This document shows, in pieces, positions 9,627 to 31,069 of a stretch of DNA of 64,000 bases. The DNA comes from an uncultured Bacilli bacterium (GTDB taxonomy: Bacteria > Bacillota_I > Bacilli_A > RF39 > UBA660). The first letter of the stretch is position 1; each line of letters starts with the position of its first letter. The stretch is taken from NCBI GenBank assembly GCA_934095865.1, contig CAKOKU010000001.1, positions 10,812 through 74,811 on the forward strand. The letters are read 5' to 3'. The translations under genes were made by a program, and so were the position numbers. The notes under the pieces were generated by a model. It worked only from the letters and a program-made list of their open reading frames with translations. It did no database searches and was not told where the DNA came from.

Positions 9627-10574
9627 ATGAAAAACTATGGTATAATGCATTTTCAATATGCAAATTTAGAAAATTTTACATCTGCTATGGGGATGGAAAT
9701 TCGAAAAAAAATGAATAAATATTTACGAGATATTTTAAAAAAGGCAGCGAAAGAGGAGATTGTTGTTGAACATTATCCACAACTTCATGATGACGAAGCT
9801 TATATTTTTGTTTCTTTGCATAATTTTGTAGAAGATACAATTGTTAATTTAGCGACAATTGATCGAAATGCTTATCTTCTATTTGGGACGACTGACCAGT
9901 TAAAAGTAAATAAGGAGATGTACTTTGCTTGGCTAAATGGTTTTATTTATGTTGATAGAACAGATAAAACTAATCGTGCCATGGCTTTAGAAAAAATGGC
10001 TAGAGTTTTAAATAATGGTAATAGTGTTTTGATTTTTCCCGAGGGTGGATTTAATAATACTGAAAATGTATTATGTCAAAAATTATTTGCTAGTCCATTT
10101 ATTTTAGCTAAAAAAACCGGTGCTAAAGTCGTACCAATTGCTCCTTTTTATGAGTATGGTTCTTCTAAAGTTTATATAAATGTTGGCGAACCATTAGATT
10201 TAGCAGCATTCGATGATAAGAAAGAGGCCCTTTTGTACCTACGCGATATTTTATCAACATTGTTATATGAATTAATAGAAAAATATTCAACACCCATAGC
10301 CAGAGCTGAATTACAAGGCGATTTTAGAATGGCATTTATGGAACAAAGAAAAAAAGAATATATGAAAACGAAATGGACTAAGGATGTTTGGGATGAAGAA
10401 TTAACTAGATATTATGATGCCAAAGAAAGAGATTATTTAGATATGCTTGCAAGTATTGACAATATAAAAGTAACTATTGAAAATGGTGGTATTTTGGGTC
10501 CAACTTTAGTAAGAAGGCTTGAAGATAAAAAATATGATTTTAAACAATATATGCATGAAAATTGGAACAAATAA
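9627..10574 (+). CDS. PlsC/LPLAT-family acyltransferase (1-acyl-sn-glycerol-3-phosphate acyltransferase-like)
   Basis: H-x4-D motif HNFVED and FPEGG motif. Start moved to the ATG at 9627 (AGGAG RBS). Confidence 0.7.
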   Translation: MKNYGIMHFQYANLENFTSAMGMEIRKKMNKYLRDILKKAAKEEIVVEHYPQLHDDEAYIFVSLHNFVEDTIVNLATIDRNAYLLFGTTDQLKVNKEMYFAWLNGFIYVDRTDKTNRAMALEKMARVLNNGNSVLIFPEGGFNNTENVLCQKLFASPFILAKKTGAKVVPIAPFYEYGSSKVYINVGEPLDLAAFDDKKEALLYLRDILSTLLYELIEKYSTPIARAELQGDFRMAFMEQRKKEYMKTKWTKDVWDEELTRYYDAKERDYLDMLASIDNIKVTIENGGILGPTLVRRLEDKKYDFKQYMHENWNK

Positions 10575-10615
10575 AATTTAAATGTTATAATAAACCTATA
10601 ATAGGAGTTGATTTT

Positions 10616-12859
10616 ATGCATTTTCAATCATTGGAATTTGAATTACCCTTTTTCTCGTTTATTTTTATCTTTATGTTATGGATTGTGTATACTTTTAAGA
10701 AAAAAGTGCCGTTAGTAGAAAACAAACCATACGAAGTAATTTTATATTGTTCGTTATTTTCCTCTTTTTTAGATACGATTGTTCATATAATTAGTGCATT
10801 TTCAACTTTAAATGAATTAAATACTACATATTTTAGATTAATAGATTTTCTGAATAAGATAATGTCGACTTTATTTGTTATTATTTTTAGTTGTTTACTT
10901 TTATACACTTTAATTATATCTTATCCTAAAGTAAAGGAGAATTTTAAAAAGTATGCTTTAAGTTTCATAATAGTTGATAGTTTATTTTTTATCACGACAT
11001 TATTTACTTATATTGAAATAATTGAGATTGTTGGCGTTAGAAATGTTAATGGTTTGACTATTTATTTGGGTTATACTTTTGTAGCATTATTTTTACTTGC
11101 TAGTATTATTACTACAATCATTAATTTTAAAAAAGATAAAAGATATTATGCTGTTTATTCAATATTACTGACGATGATTCTTTTATATGCCTGTTCATTA
11201 GTTTTTAAAGGTTTAATTATTTATGATGTTATTTTAGCTTTATTATGTTACATTATGTATTTTACAATTGAAAATCCTGATATTAAAATGATTAAAAAGT
11301 TAGAGTTTTTAAGAGATGAAGCAGAAAAGGCCAACCGAGCTAAGACAGATTTTTTGGCTAGTATGAGTCATGAGATAAGAACTCCTTTAAATGCCATTAT
11401 TGGCTTTTCTAATGATATTATTGAACACAAAGAAGATGCCTCGGAAGAGATTCTAGATGATAGTAAAAATATAGTAATGGCTTCTAATACATTGTTAGAA
11501 ATTGTTGGTAATATTTTAGATATTAATAAGATTGAGGCAAATAAATTAGAAGTTGAAGAAGTAAGTTATAAATTAAGAGATGAAATTTATAGTTTATGTG
11601 AGATTAATAAAATAAGAATTGGTCAAAAAAATATTGTATTTAATGTTAAAATTGATGATAATGTGCCAGATAATTTAATTGGTGATAAGCTAAAGTTAAA
11701 AACCATAGTTAATAATCTAGTAACGAATGCGATTAAATATACCGAACATGGAAAAATTGATTTACAGATAGGGTTAATTGGTAAACTAGATGGTGATGTA
11801 GTTAATCTTAAGATTGTTTGCGAAGATACTGGTATTGGTATAAAAGAAGAAAATATTAGTAAGTTATTTACGAAATTTGAGAGATTAGATGTAGAAAAAA
11901 ATTCAACAATCGAAGGCACTGGCTTGGGATTGGTAATTACAAAAGCTTTAGTAGAAATACTCGGAGGCACAATAAAGGTTGAATCTTTTTATGGTATGGG
12001 ATCTAAGTTTATTGTTAATATTCCTCAAAAAATTAATAGAAGTACCATTATTACAGAAAATGGTAGTCTTAATAAAGAATTACAAAAAGAATCTATTAAT
12101 GATACTTTATACACTGATAAAAAAGTTTTAATTGTCGATGATAATAAGTTAAATATTAAAGTAGCTCGTCGCGTTTTAAAATCAATTGGTCTTAATTCTG
12201 ATGAATGTTATAATGGTGCCGAATGTTTGGAAAAGATTAAGCAAGGCAATAAATACGATGTTATTTTAACGGATATTATGATGCCAGTCATGAATGGCGA
12301 ACAAGCGCTTTTAGAGTTAAAAAAATTGCCTAATTTTGTAATGCCTGTAATTGCTTTAACTGCGGATGCTGTCAGTGGTGCTGAAGAAAAATATAGAAGT
12401 GAAGGCTTCGATGAATATATTTCTAAACCTTTTACGAAAGAACAGTTGCAATTTAAACTATCAAAAGTTTTGCAGAATAGTCAGCTAGATTTTACCTTTT
12501 TAAGCAAAAATGGTATTAATTTTGAGAAAAGTGATTTATATCTTAAAAATTCTTCTCAATATCTACAAAATTTAATGAAATGGCATAAAAATAGTAAAGA
12601 TGAATTTAAGATGTTAAAGCAGTCATGCGAGGAGTTTAATCTTGTCCATTACAGGAATGCTATTGAAAGATTACTAAATGAATGTAGTGAACTTGGGTTT
12701 GTCGATTTAAAAATTATTGCTGAAGAACATGAATTGCAATGTCGCGATGAAAAAAATAGTGATTATATTGTCAAGTATTTTAGTGAACTTGAAAAAGAAT
12801 ATAAAAAGATTGTTTTGACTTTAGATAAGTTCTTTAACAATAAAGATGGGGTGAAGTGA
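10616..12859 (+). CDS. Hybrid sensor histidine kinase, paralogue of 7289-9568, with degenerate HPt
   Basis: Same architecture: SHEIRTPLN, DTGIGI, GTGLGL, DVILTDIMMP. In a gapless alignment of the C-terminal domain, Glu (12665-12667) sits where the paralogue has the HPt His. Start moved to the ATG at 10616 (AGGAG RBS). Confidence 0.9.
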   Translation: MHFQSLEFELPFFSFIFIFMLWIVYTFKKKVPLVENKPYEVILYCSLFSSFLDTIVHIISAFSTLNELNTTYFRLIDFLNKIMSTLFVIIFSCLLLYTLIISYPKVKENFKKYALSFIIVDSLFFITTLFTYIEIIEIVGVRNVNGLTIYLGYTFVALFLLASIITTIINFKKDKRYYAVYSILLTMILLYACSLVFKGLIIYDVILALLCYIMYFTIENPDIKMIKKLEFLRDEAEKANRAKTDFLASMSHEIRTPLNAIIGFSNDIIEHKEDASEEILDDSKNIVMASNTLLEIVGNILDINKIEANKLEVEEVSYKLRDEIYSLCEINKIRIGQKNIVFNVKIDDNVPDNLIGDKLKLKTIVNNLVTNAIKYTEHGKIDLQIGLIGKLDGDVVNLKIVCEDTGIGIKEENISKLFTKFERLDVEKNSTIEGTGLGLVITKALVEILGGTIKVESFYGMGSKFIVNIPQKINRSTIITENGSLNKELQKESINDTLYTDKKVLIVDDNKLNIKVARRVLKSIGLNSDECYNGAECLEKIKQGNKYDVILTDIMMPVMNGEQALLELKKLPNFVMPVIALTADAVSGAEEKYRSEGFDEYISKPFTKEQLQFKLSKVLQNSQLDFTFLSKNGINFEKSDLYLKNSSQYLQNLMKWHKNSKDEFKMLKQSCEEFNLVHYRNAIERLLNECSELGFVDLKIIAEEHELQCRDEKNSDYIVKYFSELEKEYKKIVLTLDKFFNNKDGVK

Positions 12860-13140: not shown

Positions 13141-13206
13141 TAACACTTTAAATAGGTGTTATTTTTTCTATAATTTTGATATACTAAAATGGCATTTGAG
13201 GTTTAT

Positions 13207-15027
13207 ATGATTAATAAAGTAAAAGATATGATTTTTTATAATTTAAAGGAATTAATAATCTTTCAGTTAGTATTTAAAGTTACTAGTTTTTTAATATTTA
13301 TGCCATTATTTTTAAACCTTTTTAATATAATTATGAAAGTTACAGGTTATAATTATCTAACCTTAGAGAATATTACAGGTTTTATTATTAATCCATTGGT
13401 TATTATATTATTGATAATGTTAATTCTTTTTATGATGATGTTTAACTTTTTTGATTTAAGTACAATTATAGTACTTTTGGATGCCTCATATCAGAAAAAA
13501 GCTGTGGATATTAAGGAAGCTTTAGGAATATCTTTAAAAAAATCATTACAAGTTTTTAAAATTAATAACTTGCCTTTGGCTTTTATGTTGTTGTTTTTGA
13601 TACCGTTCTTAAATATAGGAATAGCTTCTGGTTTTGTTTCTTCTATATCTGTTCCTGAATTTGTTATGGATTATATTAATAATAATATATTATTTAAAAT
13701 TATATTTTGGCTAATATTTTCTGGTCTTTTGATTATTCTTTTAAGATGGTTATATGCAATACACTATTATGTTTTAGAAAATAATAATTTTCGACAAGCA
13801 AGAGCTAAAAGCATCAAGTTAAATGCTAAAAATCGCTTGTTAGATTTGATTAAGATGATAGTGGTTCAGTTAATAATTTTTTTGTTATATATAATTTTTC
13901 TCTTCTTGGGAATTGCCATAATTTATTTAATATACTTGTCTTTAAAAAAGATAGTAGTAGTTAGCAGTATTTTTATAACTATAATTGGTATCTTTTTAGG
14001 ATTATCACTTGTTATTGTTGCTTTGCTGTCTACTCCGATTAGTTATGCTTGCATGAGTGCCTTGTTTTATCAAAATAAGATAAAAAGTGGTGAGAAAATA
14101 AAACATATACAGTTTAATAAAATTAAAAAAATAACTATAAGTACCGTTAGATGGCGTCGTTTTAAGACTAGTTTGGTTTTATGCAGTGTCTTAACAGGCA
14201 GTGTGTTTACGTATGGTTTAGTAACGGGTAGATATAACTTTAATATTGAATATATTAAAAAACAAGAAATTACTGCGCATCGGGGGAGTTCAATTAAATA
14301 TCCTGAAAATACGATGTTAGCATTTATTGGTGCTTTAAATGAACAAGCTAATTGGATTGAGTTAGACGTTCAACAAACAAAGGATGATGTCTTAGTAGTT
14401 AGTCATGATAATAATTTAAAACGCACGACTGGAAAAGATATTAACATCACAGATGTGAACTATGATGAAATCGAAGAAATAGACGTTGGGAGCTATCTAA
14501 ATTCTAATTACCCTATATCATATATACCAAGATTAGAAGATGTTATAAAATGGGCTAGTTCAAATAATATGAAAGTTAATATTGAATTGAAACCAAATGG
14601 AATGGAAAATGACTTAGAAGAAAAAGTCATAGCATTAATCAAAAAGTATAATTTTGAAGATAATTGTGTGGTTGCTTCTGGTAAGTATGAAGTTTTAGAA
14701 AAAGTTAAAGAAATAGATGATGATATTAAAACGGCCTATGTAATGAGTTTCTTTTATGGTGATATTATAAAATTGGATAAAGTAGATGTTTTTAGTATAG
14801 AAGCATCTAGTATCAATAGTGAATTAGTTAAAAAGATTCATAATAATGGTAAGGAAATCTATGCTTGGACTGTTAATAATAGTGATAGTATAAATAAAAT
14901 GTTAGAACTTAATGTTGATAATATTATTACGGATGATGTAGAATTAGCATATAGATTATTATTTAAAAGTAGAAGTAGTAATTTAGTTTTTGTTTATATC
15001 AAATATGTAGAGAAAGTGTTTAGGTAG
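13207..15027 (+). CDS. Membrane-anchored glycerophosphodiester phosphodiesterase (GDPD)
   Basis: N-terminal multi-TM domain, then ITAHRGSS..YPENT, ELDVQQTKDDVLVVSHD and IELK motifs. Start placed at 13207 (GAGG RBS); 13189 is the alternative. Confidence 0.85.
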   Translation: MINKVKDMIFYNLKELIIFQLVFKVTSFLIFMPLFLNLFNIIMKVTGYNYLTLENITGFIINPLVIILLIMLILFMMMFNFFDLSTIIVLLDASYQKKAVDIKEALGISLKKSLQVFKINNLPLAFMLLFLIPFLNIGIASGFVSSISVPEFVMDYINNNILFKIIFWLIFSGLLIILLRWLYAIHYYVLENNNFRQARAKSIKLNAKNRLLDLIKMIVVQLIIFLLYIIFLFLGIAIIYLIYLSLKKIVVVSSIFITIIGIFLGLSLVIVALLSTPISYACMSALFYQNKIKSGEKIKHIQFNKIKKITISTVRWRRFKTSLVLCSVLTGSVFTYGLVTGRYNFNIEYIKKQEITAHRGSSIKYPENTMLAFIGALNEQANWIELDVQQTKDDVLVVSHDNNLKRTTGKDINITDVNYDEIEEIDVGSYLNSNYPISYIPRLEDVIKWASSNNMKVNIELKPNGMENDLEEKVIALIKKYNFEDNCVVASGKYEVLEKVKEIDDDIKTAYVMSFFYGDIIKLDKVDVFSIEASSINSELVKKIHNNGKEIYAWTVNNSDSINKMLELNVDNIITDDVELAYRLLFKSRSSNLVFVYIKYVEKVFR

Positions 15028-19929: not shown

Positions 19930-19954
19930 ATTATGAATTTATGGGGTGATAAGT

Positions 19955-20680
19955 GTGGCACTTATAAGAGTAAAAGGTATTGAAGAATTAAATTTAAGAG
20001 GTAAATCAATTAATGCTGGCGACCATGGTGAAATCTATGAATTTGATTCTACACATTATTTTAAAAGAATAAATGATGCTGATGGATTATTAAATAATAC
20101 TACAAATTATCAACGTAAAAACATATTAGAGTTTTTGATGAAATTTAAAGGTACAAAACATTTAGTTTTTCCTGAAGATATTTATGTTACTAAAGAGCAA
20201 TTGCTTGGCTATACTTCTGTGAAGAAGGATGCCAAACCGTTAGCGTCTTTAGATGATGATGCCAGATTAGCCGATGTTTTAAAATCTTTTAAAGTATTAC
20301 TAAAAGAATTAAAAATTTTAGCAAATGGTGGTGTTTTTAATTATGATTTATCTCCCGACAATGTCTTATTTGATAAAGAAATGTGGGTTATAGATTTTGA
20401 TGAAAGTTCTTATAATAAAAAGCTTAGCTATGAAAGAATGGTTTTGCGTCTTTTCCAAACTGTTAGAGATTCAATAGTTGGTGATTGCTATGCTTCGCCT
20501 TTATTAAGACAAAGAGATTTAGAAGAGTTATACCGTCAATTTGTGTCGTATGAGTCTTTAGATTATGATGCCTATTTTCGCTTATTAATATCAAATGCCG
20601 AGTATGCAAATTATTTTAAAAGAGTAAAAACGGTCGGCGATTTAAGAAGAAGCTTAGAAATAGCAAAGAAAAATTTATGA
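19955..20680 (+). CDS. Minimal protein-kinase-like fold protein, paralogue 1 (motifs intact)
   Basis: NYDLSPDNVLF (20339-20371) matches a kinase catalytic loop; VIDFDES (DFD at 20393-20401) matches the metal-binding motif. FKRIN gives a candidate VAIK-type Lys. GTG start at 19955 yields MALIRVKGIEE, parallel to the paralogues. Confidence 0.6.
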   Translation: MALIRVKGIEELNLRGKSINAGDHGEIYEFDSTHYFKRINDADGLLNNTTNYQRKNILEFLMKFKGTKHLVFPEDIYVTKEQLLGYTSVKKDAKPLASLDDDARLADVLKSFKVLLKELKILANGGVFNYDLSPDNVLFDKEMWVIDFDESSYNKKLSYERMVLRLFQTVRDSIVGDCYASPLLRQRDLEELYRQFVSYESLDYDAYFRLLISNAEYANYFKRVKTVGDLRRSLEIAKKNL

Positions 20681-21373
20681 GTAAAATAAGAGTTAAAAGT
20701 ATAGAAGAAATACCATTAAAAAGTGATGAAATTAATCGTGGCAATGGTGGTGTTATATATTTAACTAGAGCTGGCGATTATTTTAAATTATTAAATCCAG
20801 AATATAGATTTTGGCAAAACAGTAGTAATTACAATCGCCTTAGAATTCTAGAAAAACTGATGGGTCTTGGTCCTACTAATTATTTGGTATTACCTAAAGA
20901 TATTTATGTTACAGATGAAGCACTACTTGGTTATACCATGAATATTTGTAATGGAATACCATTGGGCTATTTTGCTGATAATATAAAATATGGTGATATT
21001 GTTAGAGCTTTTAATAATATTTTGAAAGAAATAAGATTTAGCTATTGAAAATATTGATATTTGCAGTGATAATGTGCTATTTGATGGTGTAAATCTTTAT
21101 ATGTTGGATTTTGATAATAGCATTAGTGATGTTAATCCAGAAATTGCATATAGATTGATGGCAAATGGTCTTTTAGGACTGGTATTAAGCAAAATTATAG
21201 ATGATTTTGTGGTTCCTGATAAAGATTTAATTAATTTTAAAAATCAGCTTGATATGCTAAGAAGTGAGAATCATAGTTTTTATTTACTTTTATTAAAATA
21301 TAAGTTAGAAAGATATTGTGGGATGGATATTAAAACTGTTGGTGATATTCGCCGAATATTACGTTTGCTTTAG
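20677..21373 (+). pseudogene. Kinase-like paralogue 2, split by a frameshift near 21034
   Basis: ORFs 20677-21048 and 21074-21373 are the N- and C-terminal halves. Shifting +1 at 21034/21035 restores LKEI/DLAIENIDICSDNVLFDGVNLYMLDFDNS, colinear with paralogue 1. Confidence 0.7.
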
Positions 21374-21395
21374 CTTCTATAATAGGTGATTTTAA

Positions 21396-21424
21396 TTGAC
21401 TTTCTTAAGAATTAATTATATCCT
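21396..21424 (+). promoter_or_regulatory. Promoter-like element TTGACT-17-TATCCT
   Basis: TTAATTGACT ... TATCCT, duplicated from the 19901 element. Confidence 0.4.
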
Positions 21425-21447
21425 AAGTAGTATGAAAAGGTGAAATT

Positions 21448-22194
21448 ATGGCAATTATAAAAGTTAAGAATATACAAGAGATTGGTTTTAGTAATGATAT
21501 AGTACGTACAAGCAGAACTGGCGTTAATTATACTATGCCTGGACAGGATAATGTTGTTTTCAAAAGATTAAATAATGATACTGGTTTTTTAGATTCACAA
21601 GAAAGTGAGGACCGTTTTAATACTTTAGTTGAATTGATGAATAATGGTAAGGTTTATACCGGTTGTGAAATTCCTCAAGATATATATATTTCTGGGGATG
21701 GGGTATATTTATATGGATATTCATTATTAGATAGTGGTAAATCATCTTTAAAAAGTAGACAAAACTATGATGGAAGTTATATTAAATTTTTAATTGATTA
21801 TAAAAAATTTTTAGCTGAACTTCGTGAAATGGCAAATCATGGAGTTAGTCATTATGGCATTGATTCTTCGACTTTATTATATAGTCGTAACGATGGCTTT
21901 ACTTTAAGTAGTGTAGATGAGTGCAGACATTCTGGTTATATTGCTCTATATCAGGAAATGGGTGCAAAATCTTTTGAAGTTATTAAAGGATATATTACAA
22001 GGGGTTACGAAGAATCGCCAATTTTAAGAGATGGTGGCTTACAAGCGTTAGAAGAAGCATTTAAAAATCGTAGTCGTGCTTGTTATATGAGATATTTATA
22101 TAAATTACAATTTGAGACTTCGATGGAATTAGGTAGTCCAGCTACAAGTATTGAAGATGTAAGAAATGGTCTAAAACATAGTTTAAAAAGATAA
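21448..22194 (+). CDS. Kinase-like paralogue 3 with degenerate catalytic motifs (predicted pseudokinase)
   Basis: N-terminus MAIIKVKNIQE and VFKRLNN are conserved. The catalytic loop becomes HYGIDSSTLLY and DFD becomes SSVDE. AAGGTG RBS. Confidence 0.6.
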   Translation: MAIIKVKNIQEIGFSNDIVRTSRTGVNYTMPGQDNVVFKRLNNDTGFLDSQESEDRFNTLVELMNNGKVYTGCEIPQDIYISGDGVYLYGYSLLDSGKSSLKSRQNYDGSYIKFLIDYKKFLAELREMANHGVSHYGIDSSTLLYSRNDGFTLSSVDECRHSGYIALYQEMGAKSFEVIKGYITRGYEESPILRDGGLQALEEAFKNRSRACYMRYLYKLQFETSMELGSPATSIEDVRNGLKHSLKR

Positions 22195-22300: not shown

Positions 22301-23399
22301 ATGGATATAAGAGAAATTAAGTTAAAATATAATGATTTAGTTAATAAAGTTAGTGAAATTGGGAGGTCTCTTTGACGTAGAGGCTAAAAAAAATAGAATA
22401 AAGGAACTAGAAACTGCTTTAAACGATAGCTCTATTTGGAGTGATTTAGAACGTGCAAATAAGATTAATGCTGAATTGACTAATTTAAAAAAAGAAATAA
22501 GTGGCATAAGTAAAATTAATCTTAGTATAGAAACAATTGCCTTAATGTTAGATGAAGCAACAAGTGATGCTGAACTTATGAATGAAGTGGCATTAGAGAT
22601 TGAAAATGTTTCTAAAGAAGTTGAGGAACTTTATATAGCAACTCTTTTAAATGGACCTTATGATAATTTAAATTGCTTTTTAGAAATTCATCCTGGAGCT
22701 GGTGGTACCGAGGCTTGTGATTGGGCAAGTATGCTTCTTAGAATGTATGAACGTTTTTGTGAAAAAAATAATTATAAATATGAAGTAATAGATTTTCTTA
22801 AAGGGGAAGAAGCCGGTGTTAAGTCTGTAACTTTAAGAATTAGCGGGTTTAATGCTTATGGTTATTTTAAAGGCGAAAAGGGTATTCATCGTTTGGTAAG
22901 AATATCTCCATTTGATTCAAATAAGAGAAGACACACGTCTTTTGCTTCTGTTAGTGTAGTTCCTGAATTTGAAAAGATAAGTGATATTGAAATAAAAGAT
23001 GAAGACTTAAAAATAGACGTTTTTCATTCTAGTGGGGCTGGCGGTCAATCTGTTAATACTTCTGATAGTGCCGTAAGAATTACCCATTTACCAACTAATA
23101 TAGTTGTTAGTTGTCAGGTAGAACGTAGTCAATTAAGAAATAAAGAACGTGCAATGGAAATGTTAAAATCAAAGTTATATCAATTAGAAGTTGAAAAAAA
23201 AGAAGCTGAATTAAATAAAGAAAAAGGCTTAAATTCTAGTATTAATTTCGGTAGTCAAATAAGAAATTATGTTTTAGAACCATATACTTTAGTGAAGGAT
23301 GTAAGAAGTGGTTATGAAACTAGTCAAGCATTTAAAGTATTAGATGGAGATATTTTAGATATAATGCAATCAGTTTTAAAAAAGAATATAAATAAGTAA
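22301..23399 (+). CDS. prfB: Peptide chain release factor 2, expressed through a programmed +1 frameshift
   Basis: Frame 0 reads MDIREIKLKYNDLVNKVSEIGRSL then TGA (22373-22375). The +1 frame continues DVEAKKNRIKELE. RF2 motifs SPF and GGQ (SGAGGQSVN) are present. Confidence 0.92.
22361..22376 (+). promoter_or_regulatory. RF2 autoregulatory +1 frameshift site
   Basis: Internal SD-like GGGAGG, then TCT CTT TGA C (slippery CUU-UGA-C). Confidence 0.9.
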
Positions 23400-23439: not shown

Positions 23440-25095
23440 ATGAAAAAGTTAACTAGTTGTAGAAGAAAGGCGGCTTTTTTTCTTTCTTTATGTATAGTAA
23501 TTAATACTACTTGTTTTAGTTTGTTAGGTAATAAAAAAAGTGATGTAAAAAATAATGCTGGTATGGTTGAGGCTTTAGAGTATGAGGATACGATTGAAGC
23601 AACTGAGATTGACCAGCAAAAATGTTTGAAATTAATTGAAGAAATAAAAAGAATAAGCTTCAATGCCCAAGAAAAAACTTTATTAAGTGAAGCTGAACTT
23701 GATAGTTTTTTAAATAGAAAGACAGTTGGAGAATGTACTTATTCTTTTGATGGGGATTATACGGATATTCTGCGAGCTATTCGAGATAACTCACGGGCTT
23801 TTATAGATTCAGATAAAACTGCAAATTATCACTCTTTAGATGATGTTGATTACTTAAGAAGTTTAGGTAAATATGTTGATGTTAATGCCGAAGAAATGGC
23901 TTTATGGATTAATGAATGTTTGAAAAGTAGGATAAATAAAGTATTAGCGTCTGGAAATAAAGAACATATTCATAAATTAGCTTACTTAAAAATAGTTTTT
24001 AGGACTTTGCCAGAAGAAGAATTGGGTAATTATGATTCAGATAACAATACAATAGTTTTATCTATTCAGAATTTCTTAAAAAAATGTTTTATTAAAGATG
24101 ATTTTTATGCTGGTATTTATAATATTTTCAATCATGAAATTAATCATGCTTTTCAATACCCTTGTTCAGATATTTTAGAAATAAATGGTATTCAATATTG
24201 TGCCTTTTATAAAGAAAGTTCGGCTGAAAGTTATAATTGGTTAAAAAATCAATGCCCATATCAATCAAAAAATAAAAAATATAATTATACTTATGGATAT
24301 TTAGAAGAAAGAAAACATGAAGGAGATATTTTATTAATTAATTTTTTAGATACTTCTAAATCTTTAGATGGATATTATGATGTTATTTTTAACAATGATA
24401 TGTTAGGTCTTGGCAGTTATTTAGGCCTTGATTTTAGTCAAACAAAAGAATTAGTTTGTGCGATGTATTTAATGGATGCTGCAAGTTTAAGAAATAACTA
24501 TTGGCAACAGGCTTTTCATACTCAAGATTTAGCCAGTATTGATGCTAACATTGATAAAACAGTTGGAATGCTGGTTAATGGTGTTTCTGAAGGCGTGGTT
24601 TTAAAATTATCATTGACTAATTTATTAATGAAGACATTAGATGGCAGTGTAACATTAGAAGAAAATTTAGCCCTTTATTATTTCATTTTGGTTAATATAT
24701 TTGATTCAGTTTGTTATAGTGATTATGATTATGCCAATGAAATTTCAACAGTAACTTATTATCAAGAATTTTGTTCAAAGTATCAAATAATGCAGGAAAT
24801 TTATTTTGAATTTTTAAGTAATTATTATGGTGTAGATATTGATGAGATAGTTGAAATGTTCTCTGATATTATTAATAGTGATTTTTTGACTTGCCTTAGT
24901 GATTATGTTGAATATGATCAAGTAGATGATAGTAAGTATGGCATTTTGATTAAAAGATTAATGACTACTTATCCAACAATGTATTTTATTGCTAATGACG
25001 GGACGGTATTTTCTAATTTTAATATTGATAGTATTAGAATGCTATTAGCAGATAGCGCTATAAAAAGTAAATATTTAGTGTTAACTTTGGGGTAA
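23440..25095 (+). CDS. Exported HExxH protein, paralogue 1 (putative zinc metallopeptidase of an unrecognised family)
   Basis: N-terminal signal or lipoprotein-like peptide (FFLSLCIVINTTC). HEINH at 24133-24147. Colinear similarity to the next two genes. Confidence 0.6.
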   Translation: MKKLTSCRRKAAFFLSLCIVINTTCFSLLGNKKSDVKNNAGMVEALEYEDTIEATEIDQQKCLKLIEEIKRISFNAQEKTLLSEAELDSFLNRKTVGECTYSFDGDYTDILRAIRDNSRAFIDSDKTANYHSLDDVDYLRSLGKYVDVNAEEMALWINECLKSRINKVLASGNKEHIHKLAYLKIVFRTLPEEELGNYDSDNNTIVLSIQNFLKKCFIKDDFYAGIYNIFNHEINHAFQYPCSDILEINGIQYCAFYKESSAESYNWLKNQCPYQSKNKKYNYTYGYLEERKHEGDILLINFLDTSKSLDGYYDVIFNNDMLGLGSYLGLDFSQTKELVCAMYLMDAASLRNNYWQQAFHTQDLASIDANIDKTVGMLVNGVSEGVVLKLSLTNLLMKTLDGSVTLEENLALYYFILVNIFDSVCYSDYDYANEISTVTYYQEFCSKYQIMQEIYFEFLSNYYGVDIDEIVEMFSDIINSDFLTCLSDYVEYDQVDDSKYGILIKRLMTTYPTMYFIANDGTVFSNFNIDSIRMLLADSAIKSKYLVLTLG

Positions 25096-25154
25096 ATAAT
25101 ATTTTGACTTTTTAGAAAATTTCTTTATAATATAGCTTACGGAGGTTTTTAGCA

Positions 25155-26864
25155 TTGAATAATATGAAAAAAAGACTAACATCGTTATTATTGGTGTTCT
25201 GCATCACGGTAAGTAATACGGGATGTAAGGTCTTTAAGCGTGCTAAAAATGACATAGAACTTAATGATTCTAGTGTTTCAGTTAGTGATATTGAGGCTAG
25301 TAATACAGAATTAGAAATTGCCTTTAGAGAATTTGTATCTTCCTTAGATAAAGTCGATGGTGTTGATAAAAAAATCCATTTTACAAAAAAAGAAGAGATA
25401 GAAATAACTACTTTGACTCCAACTCATGCTTGTGTTTATGAGTTTACGGGAACTGGACTAGATTTAATTGAATTAATAGAACAAAATACTGGCGAGTATT
25501 TAGAAGCACATAGTGAATATAAGAGCTTTTTTGATGATAGTTATATGAGTGAGGAGTCTTATGTAAATTACTTTGGGTTGGAACTTAATGAAGATGATAT
25601 CAAAAGAGTAAAAGAAGTTATGGCTGATGCCTTATACAATAAAGTGTTGTATGTCTTAAATAATGATACTGATGATGATGTTCATAAGTTAGCAACTTTA
25701 AGCATTGTGTTTGTAGAAGACTTTGCTAATTCCAATAGCAACTTTAGAACATATGGCGTGTATGAAAATAGTGAGAATGTTATTAAGATTTCTTTAAAAA
25801 ATATTTTGGATAGTTCAAATAGCTATTTTCGGGTAATTCAATCAGCTTATAATGCTGCTGCTCATGAACTAAGTCATATTGATGATTATGCTTGCTCTGA
25901 TCGATTGTTAGCTGGTGATAACGAAAAGATAGATTTTTTGAATAGAGAGTTTGTATCTTCACTAAGAGAAGCTGAAAATTCTAGTTTTCAACAAAGTGGC
26001 ATGGTAGATAATCCTTGGCGTACTTATATGTCATCATCCGATTATTGTTATGATAGCTTTCGCCAATTTGAATCATGTTTATTTTTAACTAATGCTTTTG
26101 ATAAAGATAAGACAATTGCTGATTATTATTTAGCTTTTAAGAGTAGTGATTTATCAAAATTATATGAATATTTTTCTCTGATGACTAAAGAAGAGCAAAT
26201 AGAATTTATTAAAATAATTTATGCTTATGATGCCACTCAGGCCAGAAACAATTATGCAGCTAGTTTTACTAGTGAAGATGCTAAAGAAAGATATTGGCAA
26301 GTTGAAGATAGTTTAGAAAAAAGTTATTTTATTAGTATTTTAAAGATGGCCTTGATTAATTTGGCTCAATATAATGTTAATAATGAAGGGGATTTAAACT
26401 GTAAAGATAACTTGATGCTTTATTATTATATTATGATTACTATTGCAGATAATGCAGCTTTAGCTGATGTAGATAGTAATGGGGAGGCAGTAGTTTATTT
26501 TTATGATAGTTTTTGTCGTAATTATAAACAGATTGAGGAAAGCTTTTTCAGATTTTTAAGTGCTTGTTATGGAATGTCAGTGGAAGAAGTTCAAGAAATG
26601 TATAAAAAAACTTCAAGTGATGAATTACTGACTAAGATAAATAAGATAGATTGTTATGATGAAAATAAGTTAACAAGAATTGGTCGGCTTTTTGATAAGT
26701 TTAGCAATTTAAAGGTTGCTTTAAGAAGCCGAGATAAAGATATAGATACAGGGTTAATGATAGATAATATTTGGTTACAAGTTTTAGAGCAGCTTAATGA
26801 TTATGATGATGAAAAGCAAAATATATTAGGGTTAAATGTAGTAAGGAGAAATTATCATGAATAA
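25155..26864 (+). CDS. Lipoprotein with HExxH motif, paralogue 2
   Basis: Lipobox-like LLLVFCITVSNTGC. HELSH at 25863-25877. TTG start 9 nt after GGAGG (alternative ATG at 25164). Confidence 0.6.
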   Translation: MNNMKKRLTSLLLVFCITVSNTGCKVFKRAKNDIELNDSSVSVSDIEASNTELEIAFREFVSSLDKVDGVDKKIHFTKKEEIEITTLTPTHACVYEFTGTGLDLIELIEQNTGEYLEAHSEYKSFFDDSYMSEESYVNYFGLELNEDDIKRVKEVMADALYNKVLYVLNNDTDDDVHKLATLSIVFVEDFANSNSNFRTYGVYENSENVIKISLKNILDSSNSYFRVIQSAYNAAAHELSHIDDYACSDRLLAGDNEKIDFLNREFVSSLREAENSSFQQSGMVDNPWRTYMSSSDYCYDSFRQFESCLFLTNAFDKDKTIADYYLAFKSSDLSKLYEYFSLMTKEEQIEFIKIIYAYDATQARNNYAASFTSEDAKERYWQVEDSLEKSYFISILKMALINLAQYNVNNEGDLNCKDNLMLYYYIMITIADNAALADVDSNGEAVVYFYDSFCRNYKQIEESFFRFLSACYGMSVEEVQEMYKKTSSDELLTKINKIDCYDENKLTRIGRLFDKFSNLKVALRSRDKDIDTGLMIDNIWLQVLEQLNDYDDEKQNILGLNVVRRNYHE

Positions 26865-28602
26865 TAATATGAGTTATGGTGAAAAATCGATTGAAAAAAG
26901 AAGAAAACAAGAGGCTAAGAGAAATAAAATTTTAGGATCAATTGCTTTAGTGGTTGCTATTAATGTGGCTTTAGTAAGTGCTTATTTACATGGTGGTGTT
27001 GGTGCTGTCTTAGCAGCGGTCAAGAAAAATAAGAGTGAAGATGAAGAATCTGCAATTGCTTTAATGACAACTTCTGCTAGAGTTACTGGCGATGGTATTT
27101 CTGAGAATAATGATTTTAGTGAAATTTTATTTTTAAGTCAAAAAGAACAAGAAGAATTGTTAAGAAGAATTAATGATGGTTATCAAGATAAATGTACTTT
27201 TGAAAAAGAATGCAGTGCTGCTGATATAGTTAATACTATCATGAGTAATAGTGCTGATTTTGCTAGTAATCATCCTGGTTATTTATCACTATTTGATTAT
27301 GAAGGGTTAGCTTCTTATATTTTAACTAATGATATTGATATAGATGATTTTGATACGGCTATGAAAGCTATGACTACTGGGGTAATTTTTGTTGTTAAAG
27401 ATGCTTGTGCCAAATATGATGATGGTGTGATTGGCTCTAAAAGTGATATTCACAATTTAATGGATGTAAAGTTGGTACTAGATATTGAAGGTAAGAATCA
27501 AGTTGATGATGTTAATTGTATTGCCATTGACTATAAAGGTATTACTAGCCAAATAGAGGATAATCAACAGAAAAAGGTTGTTTATAATAGCGCTTTTATG
27601 GAATTAATGATTAGTAAACTTACTCGTATTATTCAACGTGATTGTCCTGAGTATGGAGCCGAGTCTAAAGTGTTGACTTATGATAGTGAGGTAGTTCCTT
27701 TTATACTAGATACTAGTACTATAAGTGTAATACCTAATTATTATGGTATAACATTGTCTAATAATTTTGATAAGACTTTACTTTTTGAAAGAAATGCTGA
27801 AGCCAAGCTTCTATTGCTTACTTTATTTGATAGAGATAAAGATATAAGTTGGTATTATAATGCTATAAATAAAAATGATTTAGCGAGCTTTTGTGAATAT
27901 TTTGGAGCTAATAGTAGTGAAGAACAACTTAGATTGTTTAATTTAATTGCCTCATATGATGCGGTTTATATGAGAAATTCTTATTATAAGAAAGTTAGAA
28001 ATATGCTTGATTTAACTGATTATACATCTTATGCTAAGGAAAAATTGGCTCAAAGAGTAGAAGATAAAATTGATTTTAGTAATGATGCTACTATTTTAGG
28101 TATTGCTATTGATAAAATGATTACAGATGCTAATAGCCACGCAGATTTGAGCATGATAGATTATTTTGACTTATTTGATTTTGTTTCTAGTGTTGCTTTT
28201 GCTGATACTTATTCTTCAGATAGTACTATGTCATTTGACGTATCTGATACTTTAATTGCCAAATATTTTGAACTTAAAGATAAATTTATTAAATCTATGG
28301 CAGTAAGATATGATTGTTCATTGGAAGATGCTTTAAACGCTTATGAAAATAATCGTCATAATTCATTATTTTTCTCATCTTTAGCTTATAAATCCGGTAG
28401 TGTTTATTATGATCCATCTGTTAGCTTGGACGATTATCCTTTCTTAGCAGATCAATACAGCTCTTCAAAAGGTGTATGTGATGATCTTTTAAAAGTATTT
28501 GGCAATTTAGATGATATTGCTAGATTATGTCCTAACTTTTATAAAGGCGTTCCAGAAAATGTTTTAGAATCTGGTAAAAAATTAAATAAAGATTTAAATT
28601 AA
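26857..28602 (+). CDS. Membrane-anchored paralogue 3 with degenerate metal site (MELMI in place of HExxH)
   Basis: Overlaps the upstream gene by 8 nt (AAGGAG RBS). N-terminal TM ILGSIALVVAINVALVSAYL without a lipobox Cys. MELMI at 27598-27612 aligns with the HExxH of its paralogues. Confidence 0.6.
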   Translation: MNNNMSYGEKSIEKRRKQEAKRNKILGSIALVVAINVALVSAYLHGGVGAVLAAVKKNKSEDEESAIALMTTSARVTGDGISENNDFSEILFLSQKEQEELLRRINDGYQDKCTFEKECSAADIVNTIMSNSADFASNHPGYLSLFDYEGLASYILTNDIDIDDFDTAMKAMTTGVIFVVKDACAKYDDGVIGSKSDIHNLMDVKLVLDIEGKNQVDDVNCIAIDYKGITSQIEDNQQKKVVYNSAFMELMISKLTRIIQRDCPEYGAESKVLTYDSEVVPFILDTSTISVIPNYYGITLSNNFDKTLLFERNAEAKLLLLTLFDRDKDISWYYNAINKNDLASFCEYFGANSSEEQLRLFNLIASYDAVYMRNSYYKKVRNMLDLTDYTSYAKEKLAQRVEDKIDFSNDATILGIAIDKMITDANSHADLSMIDYFDLFDFVSSVAFADTYSSDSTMSFDVSDTLIAKYFELKDKFIKSMAVRYDCSLEDALNAYENNRHNSLFFSSLAYKSGSVYYDPSVSLDDYPFLADQYSSSKGVCDDLLKVFGNLDDIARLCPNFYKGVPENVLESGKKLNKDLN

Positions 28603-28630
28603 AATAATATTTATTTTGTTTCTATTTGAA

Positions 28631-28661
28631 TATCTGTTTTTAAAAAGACAGGTATTTTTTT
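28631..28661 (+). terminator. Rho-independent terminator candidate
   Basis: TATCTGTTTTT / AAAAAGACAGGTA imperfect stem followed by TTTTTTT. Confidence 0.45.
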
Positions 28662-28982: not shown

Positions 28983-29062
28983 AAGTACACTTTAAGAAAA
29001 CAAAAAGCGACAAAAGCATAGATTTCTTAATTTATGGAATAATAAATATGAAAGGGATTATT

Positions 29063-31069
29063 ATGAAGAATAAGAAATTATGGTTAGTTGGTACTCTAAG
29101 TATATTTGGCTTGGCTTTGATTATTGGAACATCGTATGCGTATTGGCGATTTAGTAAAATCAGTGATGGTAGTAATGCTGCCTTGTCTGGATGTTTTAGT
29201 GTATCACTTTCTAATGAAGCTAATGCTATAAGTTTGGAAAATGCTTATCCAATAAGTGATGAAGATGGCAAGAAACTAAAGCCATATAGCTTTACAATAA
29301 CTAATACTTGTAGTATTTTTGCTAAATATTATGTTAATTTAGAAATGCTTGAAGGTACAACTTTAAATAGTAAATATGTTGCAGTAAGGGTTAATAATGA
29401 GAATATTCAATTACTTAGTGAATTTAATGAAGATACAAATAAAAGCTTATCTACGAGTACAGAAGCAAGGACTTTAGCTACTGGGTATTTAGGCTCTGGT
29501 GATTCAATAGATTATAGTGTAGCTTTTTGGATGGATGAAAGTGTTACTATTAATGATACCGATGCAATGAATAAGAATTTTAAAAGTAAGATTATGGTAA
29601 AAGCAGAACCTAGTAGTTATTCACCAGTTGATTCTGGGTATAACACATTGCATGATGCCATTTTAGCTAATGAATATCAAACGACACCAGAGATTGCAAT
29701 TGAGAAAATCAAGGCTAAGCAAAGTTCTAGTATAACAGATAATGGTGATGGGACTTATACAGTGACTAATACAGCCCCGATTATTAAGTGGACATCTGTT
29801 ATAGGTGATGCTGTTACGAAAGATATTGTTAAACCATCGATTGATGCGATTAAATCAGATTCTCAAACTGTTGACTTGACTGAAAACGATGTTAAGTTGA
29901 AATTTTATAAAAATATTTCGTTTAATACAGATACAGGAAAGTATACTTTATCTGATCCTATTTATGTTGAACCAGATTTATTAAGCTATGATGAATCGAC
30001 TCATTATTATTTTAAAAATGAATATATATCATATAATTATTCGACCAAAAAGTTGTATACCGTTGTAGAAAATGATGGTATAAGTGTATATGAAGTAACT
30101 GGTGCATATAAAACTGATACAAAAACTATTTGGAATGGCATCGAATATTCTGCATTAAATTATAAATTGTCTTTAGTGACTATGACTGAATCAGAATTAG
30201 AAACAGATAAGTCTGACAAAGGCTTGTATGCTGGTACAGATGATTATGGTACAACCTACTATTATAGAGGAAATGTAAAAAATAATAATGTTTATTTTGC
30301 TGGCTATTATTGGCAAGTAGTAAGAATAAATGGTGATGGTTCAATTAGATTAATGTATAATGGACAAGTAAAAAATGCGTCTGGTATTGACCAATCGATT
30401 AACAATAAATTATATCAATTTAATGTTTCTTATAATTCCCCTGCATATGTAGGTTATATGTATGGAGATATAAATGCTTCAAATTTTGAAGCTGTTCATA
30501 AAAATGAAAATTCATCTACTGTGAAAAAGGTTATTGATTCTTGGTATACGAGTAATATTGTTAAAAATGATTATTCAAGTTATGTATCCATCAACGCTGG
30601 TTTTTGTGGAGATAGAAGTATTTATAGCGGTGATGGTATTAAAATTGATAAATCTACGGCATTTAGTTCTTTGTGGCGTCGTTTGAATCAAATTTTTCAA
30701 TTTAAGTGTTCTAATATGAACAATGATTTGTATACTGCCTCTGAATCAAATATAGGTAATAAATCTTTAACATATCCAGTAGGTTTAGTGACGTATGACG
30801 AATTGGTTTTAGCAGGTTTAAACGATCAGCAATTAAATAAGTTATCTTACGCATATTCTTCACAAAATTATTGGACTATGACGCCTGGTAGTTTCAGTTC
30901 AACATTTGGGTATGCTTATGCGTGGCGTAGTGACAATCCTGGTTTTCTTTCATATCGTTGGGTAAATATGAGTAATAGTGTTCGTCCTGTTATTAACTTA
31001 AAGGCCGACGTTGAAATAACTGAAGGCATAGGTACGGCCAATGACCCTTATGTAATAAAAACAGAATAA
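29063..31069 (+). CDS. Large secreted protein: SipW-type signal peptide, TasA/camelysin-like N-terminal domain, C-terminal surface domain
   Basis: MKNKKLWLVGTLSIFGLALIIGTSYAYW matches the GT-x-AYF SipW-cognate signal class. ENAYPISD...YSFTITNTCSIFAKYYVNL resembles the TasA/M73 beta-sandwich. The C-terminus YWTMTP...VRPVINLKADVEITEGIGTANDPYVI resembles a DUF6273-like surface domain (from memory). Start at 29063 (AAAGGGA RBS); 29048 is the alternative. Confidence 0.6.
   Translation: MKNKKLWLVGTLSIFGLALIIGTSYAYWRFSKISDGSNAALSGCFSVSLSNEANAISLENAYPISDEDGKKLKPYSFTITNTCSIFAKYYVNLEMLEGTTLNSKYVAVRVNNENIQLLSEFNEDTNKSLSTSTEARTLATGYLGSGDSIDYSVAFWMDESVTINDTDAMNKNFKSKIMVKAEPSSYSPVDSGYNTLHDAILANEYQTTPEIAIEKIKAKQSSSITDNGDGTYTVTNTAPIIKWTSVIGDAVTKDIVKPSIDAIKSDSQTVDLTENDVKLKFYKNISFNTDTGKYTLSDPIYVEPDLLSYDESTHYYFKNEYISYNYSTKKLYTVVENDGISVYEVTGAYKTDTKTIWNGIEYSALNYKLSLVTMTESELETDKSDKGLYAGTDDYGTTYYYRGNVKNNNVYFAGYYWQVVRINGDGSIRLMYNGQVKNASGIDQSINNKLYQFNVSYNSPAYVGYMYGDINASNFEAVHKNENSSTVKKVIDSWYTSNIVKNDYSSYVSINAGFCGDRSIYSGDGIKIDKSTAFSSLWRRLNQIFQFKCSNMNNDLYTASESNIGNKSLTYPVGLVTYDELVLAGLNDQQLNKLSYAYSSQNYWTMTPGSFSSTFGYAYAWRSDNPGFLSYRWVNMSNSVRPVINLKADVEITEGIGTANDPYVIKTE

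Follow-up and report, generated by a model that had tools for sequence, protein, structure and literature searches.

We report here that three consecutive genes (g1, g2 and g3) within a 64,000-nucleotide stretch of DNA from an uncultured Bacilli bacterium, which we call the window, belong to an undescribed protein family of uncultured low-GC gut Bacillota (GTDB 'Bacilli'). These proteins probably form a gluzincin-like family of surface metallopeptidases, mostly predicted lipoproteins, for which a metal-dependent hydrolase chemistry is predicted. A gluzincin-type site had been suggested in an initial annotation of the window. It is strengthened by the presence of each of the H, E, H and downstream Glu residues in 92-93% of 133 aligned members, by the typical separation of 29 residues between the motif and the Glu, by their placement on consecutive predicted helices downstream of a small beta-sheet, and by their joint loss in the members that lack the motif. 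A gut origin is indicated only indirectly, by a relative in a metagenome-assembled genome (MAG) from Hadza gut and by a human-gut metagenome contig.

Three colinear paralogues

The three open reading frames (ORFs) are found exactly where the initial annotation had placed them (Table 1). The 8-nt overlap that it gave for g2 and g3 (26857-26864) is correct, and the gap between g1 and g2 measures 59 nt (25096-25154) rather than 60. The start codon of g2 is preceded by a GGAGG ribosome-binding site at 25141-25145. GC content is 28% throughout the window, GC skew is strongly positive, and nearly all genes are on the + strand.

g1, g2 and g3 are paralogues. BLASTP aligns g1 with g2 over 543 aa at 25% identity (E 2e-33), g2 with g3 at E 2e-16 and g1 with g3 at E 1e-7, and these significant matches in all three pairs uphold the colinear paralogy proposed earlier for the trio, at ~18-25% identity. 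The picture of three HExxH proteins holds for two of them. HEINH (g1 residues 232-236, 24133-24147) and HELSH (g2 residues 237-241, 25863-25877) lie at the nucleotides previously assigned to them, and g3 is not an HExxH protein: its aligned position reads F-M-E-L-M, with no His. The other conserved blocks listed in the initial annotation (C-x-Y/F-x-F-x-G at ~93-99, H-K/N-L..., YY... and F-L-S-x-x-Y-G) are shared by g1 and g2, and g3 has them only in part.

An undescribed family of uncultured Bacilli

A profile of the paralogues was run exhaustively with HMMER against 1.84 billion cluster representatives (clusters at 50% identity). It returned 204 proteins at E<=1e-3, of which 163 pass E<=1e-10 and 33 pass E<=1e-30. 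Nearly all are 500-600 aa long and align end to end, and the hidden Markov model (HMM) E-values reach 1e-148 on independent loci. Every family member with a named source is a 'hypothetical protein' from a MAG; the family as a whole comes from MAGs or metagenomes, among them human gut. A word-indexed search of 5.8 billion proteins, made with g2 and with four-sequence and 133-sequence profiles, returned only a 95%-identical orthologue (P0001), apparently because the index was swamped by low-complexity words. P0001 lies on a 5.8-kb contig (L001) that carries the same g1-g2-g3 triad. A scan of GTDB species representatives added a single relative with synteny (L002), an 'uncultured Bacilli bacterium' MAG from Hadza gut, and a tighter family alignment added four further metagenome loci, one of them labelled human gut. 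The same tighter alignment gave no loci in IMG/VR, and a phage origin was dropped on this ground.

No family in Pfam, NCBIfam or PHROGs scores above threshold for g1, g2 or g3. The Pfam and NCBIfam models of M4, M13, M48, M60, M78, SprT and other peptidase families have no match, even at E<=10, in g1-g3, in 82 family members or in the family consensus. PDB sequences, searched with two profiles and the consensus core, gave chance matches only (an APC coiled coil, MtrG, a serine acetyltransferase and a PDI-like protein), Rfam has nothing in the window, and no description turned up in the literature, either for DUF6782 or for families of a similar kind. The strongest library match is to DUF6782 ('putative metallopeptidase'), which is sub-threshold (E 0.004) and covers the strand and the HExxH helix; the family consensus reaches 13.5-16.9 bits where the gathering threshold is 27, and E falls below 0.01 in only 3 of the 82 members. 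Zincin_1 matches one member weakly, and the weak library matches are to zincin families only. The description of the family as unrecognised thus stands: all 204 clusters at 50% identity are unnamed, and neither Pfam, NCBIfam, PHROGs nor PDB sequences assign the proteins to a characterised family.

A conserved signature and a putative active-site module

We aligned 133 family sequences (alignment A3, mean column identity 16%) and use g2 residue numbers throughout. The signature of the family consists, in order, of a lipobox, HExNHxRQxxCxCR, ExSAES ~29 residues further on, and YxYxxER. In the N-terminal part the conserved positions are C93, I108-x-x-N111-[ST] and [ED]-D175-x-[C/H]177. These are followed by the active-site block H237-E238-[LIF]-N-H241-x-R243-Q244-x-x-C247-x-[C/H/D]249-R250, the Glu block E272-[SA]-S-A-E276-S277-x-[LI]-Y280-N281, and the later blocks Y297-x-Y299-x-x-E302-R303-x-x-E306 and Y324-Y325-N-A-I-F-D-x-D. 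Individual residues are strongly conserved (H237 in 124/133, E238 in 122/133, H241 in 122/133, E272 and E276 each in 124/133, C93 in 127/133), and H, E, H, E and E occur together in 116 of the 133 sequences. The most conserved column of the whole family is C247 (130/133; C242 in g1), which is the Cys that the initial annotation had singled out ~8 residues past the motif. H241 and E272 are separated by 17-42 residues (median 29), which overlaps the His-Glu spacing of 24-64 given for known gluzincins (PMC3267712).

The residues downstream of HExxH behave as partners of the motif. Among 93,961 column pairs ranked by mutual information with average product correction (APC), H241-E272 is 9th, E238-E272 17th and H241-Y299 28th, and the top 300 include eight pairs between the HExxH helix and the Glu helix where one is expected. 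HExxH is missing from 12 of the 133 members, which we call pseudo-members. These retain the downstream residues far less often than intact members do: E272 is kept by 25% of pseudo-members against 100% of intact members, A275 by 25% against 95%, Y280 by 25% against 83%, Y299 by 25% against 98%, R303 by 42% against 93% and Q244 by 33% against 82%. C93, N111, D175, C/H177, C247, C249, R250, Y324, Y325, Y472 and P517 are kept by the same pseudo-members at 83-100%. Such joint loss with HExxH, in proteins in which the Cys-containing positions persist, argues for a real active-site module, and the conserved positions are best described as two modules, one of the active site (H237, E238, H241, Q244, E272, A275, Y280, Y299 and R303) and a separate structural one. 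Co-loss and covariation, a signal from a limited number of lineages and uncorrected for phylogeny, also point to E272, rather than E276 or the Ala-Glu of g2, as the partner of HExxH, and E272 would be the third metal ligand. A conserved downstream Glu is thus present as the initial annotation expected, and the pairing of SAES with EAEN by which it had been recognised is not in a homologous register, the block being E272-[SA]-S-A-E276-S.

A predicted structure with zincin-like element order

An AlphaFold2 (AF2) model of g2 built from a four-sequence alignment reached a predicted local distance difference test score (pLDDT) of only 38. With A3 the pLDDT rose to 86.8, with a predicted TM-score (pTM) of 0.87 and 387 residues at or above 90. 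The model begins with a signal helix (4-22), a disordered tether (23-47), helices between residues 48 and 118 and short strands. Its core contains a long helix (146-169) and strands at 183-186, 201-204 and 209-212. HELSH (237-241) lies on helix 224-244, with C247 and D249 in the loop that follows, and E272 lies on helix 269-280. From ~residue 300 to 550 the model is an all-helical domain. The g2 model is predicted to run from a backing helix through a small three-stranded sheet to the active-site helix and then the Glu helix, which is the canonical zincin order.

A candidate structural metal site

Residues 93, 177, 247 and 249 form a quartet that is CCCC in 54 members, CHCC in 28, CCCH in 20, CHCD in 11 and CCCD in 8. 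Single Cys-to-His swaps are frequent (48/133), and His249 never occurs together with His177 (Fisher p 5e-5, ignoring phylogeny); the pair 177-249 ranks 301 of 93,961 in covariation. Because single positions change so often to His or Asp, a tetrahedral structural metal site fits the quartet better than two disulfides, which we regard as less likely. The persistence of the quartet in pseudo-members argues that its role is structural.

Export and membrane attachment

Bacterial lipoproteins have a positively charged n-region, then a hydrophobic h-region, then a lipobox [LVI][ASTVI][GAS]C. Under a simple rule (G, A or S at -1 and a hydrophobic h-region), 92 of the 133 members qualify, g2 among them and g1 and g3 not. 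This agrees with the earlier proposal that the proteins are exported, as does the g2 model with its signal helix and subsequent disordered tether. Most family members are predicted lipoproteins, and they would be surface-exposed.

For the triad itself the initial annotation had assigned lipoprotein or signal-like N-termini to g1 and g2 and a membrane anchor to g3. g2 does have a lipobox-like S-N-T-G-C24 (nt 25224-25226), with an atypical Asn at -3. The g3 protein has a hydrophobic stretch at residues 25-43 (nt 26929-26985; Kyte-Doolittle hydropathy (KD) 2.22) with no Cys and no lipobox, consistent with an uncleaved transmembrane (TM) anchor. The N-terminus of g1 is a hydrophobic signal or anchor (residues 11-29, KD 2.05) and departs from the lipoprotein assignment in that its Cys contexts, L-S-L-C and N-T-T-C, are not canonical lipoboxes.

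Intact, eroded and lost putative active sites within one array

A neighbour-joining tree pairs g1 with its orthologue L002_c1, clusters g2 with the P0010/P0016 subfamily and gives g3 a very long branch. The three copies also differ in the state of the putative active site. In g1 the equivalents of HEH, Q244, Y299, E302 and R303 are intact, the Glu block reads ESSAES (residues 259-264, nt 24214-24231) and C242 is present; judged by its residue content, g1 would be a complete enzyme.

g2 retains H, E, H, E272 (nt 25968-25970), Y299, R303 and E306, and has lost R243, Q244, A275, E276, Y280 and E302. Its quartet is C93, H177, C247 and D249. The Glu-helix motif of g2 is REAENS, in which E272 is kept and the second Glu is replaced by Ser; the nearest subfamily (P0010, P0016 and P0018) has E-A-N-A-E-N, from which the g2 motif appears to differ by the deletion of one residue. 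With several second-shell residues gone, the activity of g2 may be altered or weakened.

At the positions of H, E, H, E272 and E276 in the family alignment g3 reads S, K, R, D and I, and it has L in place of Y299. C93, H177, C247, N111, D175 and the YY pair are all kept. Compared with strain L001, g3 has 34 synonymous and 33 non-synonymous codon differences, and the 581-aa ORF is intact in both strains. The resulting ratio of non-synonymous to synonymous substitution (dN/dS) is ~0.3, a rough estimate that assumes ~3 non-synonymous sites per synonymous site. The cluster of g3 at >=90% identity contains 24 members. An intact frame in a second strain, the 34 to 33 ratio of codon differences and the 24-member cluster together argue that g3 is not decaying, and by these measures it is a membrane-anchored pseudoenzyme under purifying selection.

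Elsewhere in the family, the tandem pairs at L014 (1197-2612 and 2703-4631) and L015 (3-488 and 576-2312) lack HExxH in both copies. Catalytic loss is thus recurrent and not always offset by an adjacent intact paralogue. We had considered whether pseudo-members always lie beside an intact paralogue; this is unsupported, since L012 is alone on a short contig and L014 has two pseudo-copies.

A fast-diverging array behind prfB

The array lies directly after prfB in three related genomes (the window, L002 and L016), which share the order SDR, three kinase-like paralogues, prfB and array. The window has three copies, L002 has three and a fourth beyond yitT, and L016 has two, both intact. Between the window and L002 the neighbouring proteins are well conserved (SDR 84%, RF2 78% and YitT 68% identical) and identity drops to 32%, 32% and 24% for the family copies at corresponding positions, implying that the family proteins evolve very fast. 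Tandem copies recur elsewhere (L014 and L015), and distant members are single-copy with unrelated neighbours, including the housekeeping genes for MreC, AlaRS, topoisomerase and SecG.

Table 1. Features of the array and its surroundings, in window coordinates
Feature	Position	Strand	Product length	Remarks
prfB (release factor 2)	22302..23399	+		directly upstream of g1, 40-nt gap
g1	23440..25095	+	551 aa	canonical family member; HMM E 3.5e-95; orthologue of L002_c1
near-consensus sigma-70-type promoter-like site TTGACT-16-TATAAT	25104..25131	+		11/12; consensus match only; in g1-g2 gap
g2	25155..26864	+	569 aa	TTG start, alternative ATG 25164; HMM E 1.3e-107
g3	26857..28602	+	581 aa	pseudo-member; HMM E 2.3e-66
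terminator-like hairpin, weak	28630..28661	+		8 bp with one G-U pair, T-run; found by eye

A predicted catalytic mechanism

Following the signal peptide and disordered tether, the proteins would fold into a zincin-like core, with an all-helical C-terminal domain of ~250 residues after Y299, E302 and R303. H237, H241 and E272 would bind a catalytic Zn2+, E238 would serve as general base in activating water, and the transition state would be stabilised by Y299, Y280 or both. Gluzincin metallopeptidases work by this same scheme of two His and a Glu as zinc ligands and a Glu as base. For the quartet of C93, C/H177, C247 and C/H/D249 the most likely role is a structural metal site, or else a clamp resembling a disulfide, that would hold the N-terminal segment to the point where the active-site helix ends.

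Within the array, the overlap of the g3 start with the g2 end suggests translational coupling, and we infer that the g2 and g3 products are partners, g3 probably serving as a non-catalytic partner or scaffold. Fast divergence and variation in copy number lead us to favour an outward-facing role exposed to selection. That the substrates are host or matrix molecules is pure speculation.

We put forward a more detailed picture tentatively, with markedly less confidence than the family assignment itself. The proteins would form a new metallopeptidase family, deserving MEROPS and Pfam entries of its own and unlike any solved structure in overall architecture, in which a gluzincin site (HExNH...ExxAE...Y) is combined with a structural Cys3-4/His/Asp zinc site. 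The family would be confined to uncultured low-GC gut Bacilli and maintained as fast-diversifying tandem arrays of 2-4 copies after prfB. These arrays would repeatedly spawn membrane-anchored pseudoprotease partners such as g3, possibly joined with the active lipoprotein in a heteromeric surface complex that acts on host or dietary proteins.

Evidence against a metallopeptidase, and alternative explanations

Several observations count against the gluzincin-like assignment. The proteins have no profile match at any family threshold. A Foldseek search with the whole g2 model against PDB and BFVD, which the initial annotation had looked to for the identity of the fold, found no similar solved structure at E<=1e-3, and the overall architecture accordingly resembles nothing solved. 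No zincin was among the Foldseek results, despite the many zincins that the PDB contains: the best TM-score was ~0.1, and the match to anthrax lethal factor had an E-value of 0.83. We regard this failure of the whole model as weak evidence against a zincin fold. The covariation is for the most part a product of co-loss within a small number of lineages, and it is uncorrected for phylogeny. The mature proteins contain a median of 7 Cys, so that the quartet could be disulfides. Lastly, the catalytic residues are missing from ~9% of members, among them both copies of tandem pairs such as L014, and these members are nonetheless well conserved, indicating that the family scaffold has some function independent of catalysis.

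One alternative accepts a zincin-type metallohydrolase and, instead of a host-directed protease, makes it a housekeeping envelope enzyme that works on the cell's own surface. It could trim the stem peptides of peptidoglycan, process other lipoproteins or surface proteins, or cleave peptides used in signalling. The position of the array right after the housekeeping gene prfB in three related genomes would suit such an enzyme, as would the single-copy distant members among MreC, AlaRS, topoisomerase and SecG and the finding of carbohydrate-binding or adhesin domain fusions in none of the 82 members scanned. However, housekeeping enzymes of this kind are usually well conserved, and here syntenic copies share 24-32% identity where their neighbours share 68-84%. 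The change in copy number from 2 to 4 among related genomes is more typical of surface proteins under diversifying pressure, and the family is absent from most Bacillota. We consider the housekeeping role unlikely.

Slightly less likely again is a non-enzymatic surface protein (a binding protein, adhesin or scaffold) with a helical fold in which HExxH and the Glu bind a structural metal or ligand. In its favour, the overall fold matches no known peptidase, 12 of the 133 members persist without the motif, some of them as tandem pairs, and g3 is under purifying selection although it lacks the motif. Pseudoenzyme fractions of ~10% are, though, common in true enzyme families. The general-base Glu is as conserved as both His (122/133), and a purely structural metal site would not need it; moreover, the loss of Q244, A275, Y280, Y299 and R303 jointly with HExxH is the usual signature of an active site.

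The idea that HExxH is a chance motif in AT-rich, low-complexity ORFs, and the family an artefact of a composition (28% GC; proteins rich in N, K, I, Y and E) that swamps word-indexed searches, is ruled out for practical purposes by the 204-cluster family, by an expectation at such composition of <0.01 HExxH per protein against its occurrence in one alignment column in 116/133, by HMM E-values to 1e-148 on independent loci, by the confident AF2 model and by orthologues in syntenic genomes.

Relation to known systems

The gluzincin-like assignment places the family beside the peptidases of MEROPS clan MA(E) (for example thermolysin M4, neprilysin M13 and ACE M2). The shared features are an HExxH on a helix with a Glu, the likely third ligand, on the next helix ~20-60 residues on, a conserved Tyr further downstream and, in the g2 model, a backing helix and small beta-sheet ahead of the active-site helix. 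The ExxxD of thermolysin-like enzymes is mirrored by the E-x-x-x-E block of the family. The family differs from these peptidases in having no profile or structure match, in the form of its motif (HExNHxRQxxCxCR), in its Cys/His quartet and predicted lipoprotein anchor, and in a helical C-terminal domain of ~250 residues that has no detectable relative; its zinc binding and activity are only predicted. We therefore regard it as a new family-level variant within a known type, the HExxH+E zincins. DUF6782 is the sole library family with repeated weak matches, over profile positions 66-114 (the strand and HExxH helix), but only ~50 of its 241 profile positions are aligned, the matches are below the gathering threshold, and DUF6782 is itself uncharacterised.

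M60-like (PF13402) domains occur in host-associated microbes, and the Bacteroides thetaiotaomicron lipoprotein BT4244, one example, is a mucinase (PMC3267712). Like them, the present proteins would be extracytoplasmic, often lipoprotein-anchored HEXXH...E proteins of gut or mucosal microbes, and in both cases comparative genomics alone led to the first recognition. Unlike them, no member matches PF13402, the family has no carbohydrate-binding modules, and the spacing, motifs and taxa (uncultured low-GC Bacilli) are other. The M60-like domain is a functional analogue and not a relative. g3 can be compared with pseudoproteases that accompany active paralogues, such as FtsHi: the scaffold is kept and the catalytic residues lost, selection is purifying, and the gene overlaps that of an HExxH paralogue. 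For g2 and g3 a physical complex would be conjectural, and pseudo-members elsewhere in the family are not always beside an intact copy.

Uncultured low-GC Bacilli are common in the human and animal gut and poorly understood, and the interaction of their surfaces with the host is almost uncharted. If this is indeed a family of surface zinc proteases, it would add a new family to the peptidase classification, with a confident model open to mutation of g1 E233 or g2 E238, and the intact (g1), eroded (g2) and dead (g3) copies would form a natural series for the origin of pseudoenzymes in tandem arrays. The fast divergence (24-32% against 68-84%) makes it probable that the family is targeted by selection from immunity, phages or the niche. 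Its importance is moderate: uncharacterised HExxH families are numerous, and no current view is overturned.

Expression signals and neighbouring genes

prfB contains the classical RF2 programmed +1 frameshift site (GGGAGG-TCT-CTT-TGA-C) at ~22361-22376, and its short frame opens at ATG 22302; the mechanical ORF list, which starts the gene at GTG 22353, therefore starts it too late. The gap between prfB and g1 contains no terminator. The promoter-like sequence between g1 and g2 may provide g2-g3 with a promoter of their own, and promoter-like sites are not enriched in the region. After the g3 stop, the hairpin has a stem with only 2 G-C pairs and was not reported by the scanner; it probably marks the end of the transcription unit.

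Upstream of prfB is an array of ~245-aa kinase-like tandem paralogues (window 19946-22194, + strand; L002 4238-6480; L016 541-2724). They have a weak match to APH (PF01636; E 0.005, residues 98-156) and belong to no Pfam or NCBIfam family. These copies also diverge fast, with 43% and 26% identity against 78-84% for neighbours. The second copy in the window is split into two ORFs (20677-21048 and 21074-21373, + strand) of 123 and 99 aa that together correspond to one full-length paralogue, and the split probably reflects either a pseudogene created by a frameshift or stop or an error of sequencing.

Downstream of the triad, 29048-31069 (+ strand) encodes a 673-aa protein without Pfam matches. 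Its N-terminal TM or signal segment ends in G-T-S-Y-A-Y-W, which we take to resemble the signal peptides of the SipW/TasA-camelysin type. The first ~190 aa are 47% identical to the L002 counterpart (13179-14612), the C-terminal parts are unrelated and the L002 tail is Gly-rich. A second variable surface protein thus appears to be encoded here.

Further upstream of the array, the window contains two large hybrid histidine kinases a short distance apart (7289-9568 and 10562-12859, + strand) with HisKA, HATPase_c and receiver domains, one also with Hpt. If the genome is small, as its low GC hints, such a pair would represent an unusual signalling capacity. On a metagenomic contig (L006), a 546-aa serpin-domain protein (PF00079, 189-1829) lies ~6 kb upstream of P0010. 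Bacterial serpins are uncommon, and this one is probably unrelated to the family.

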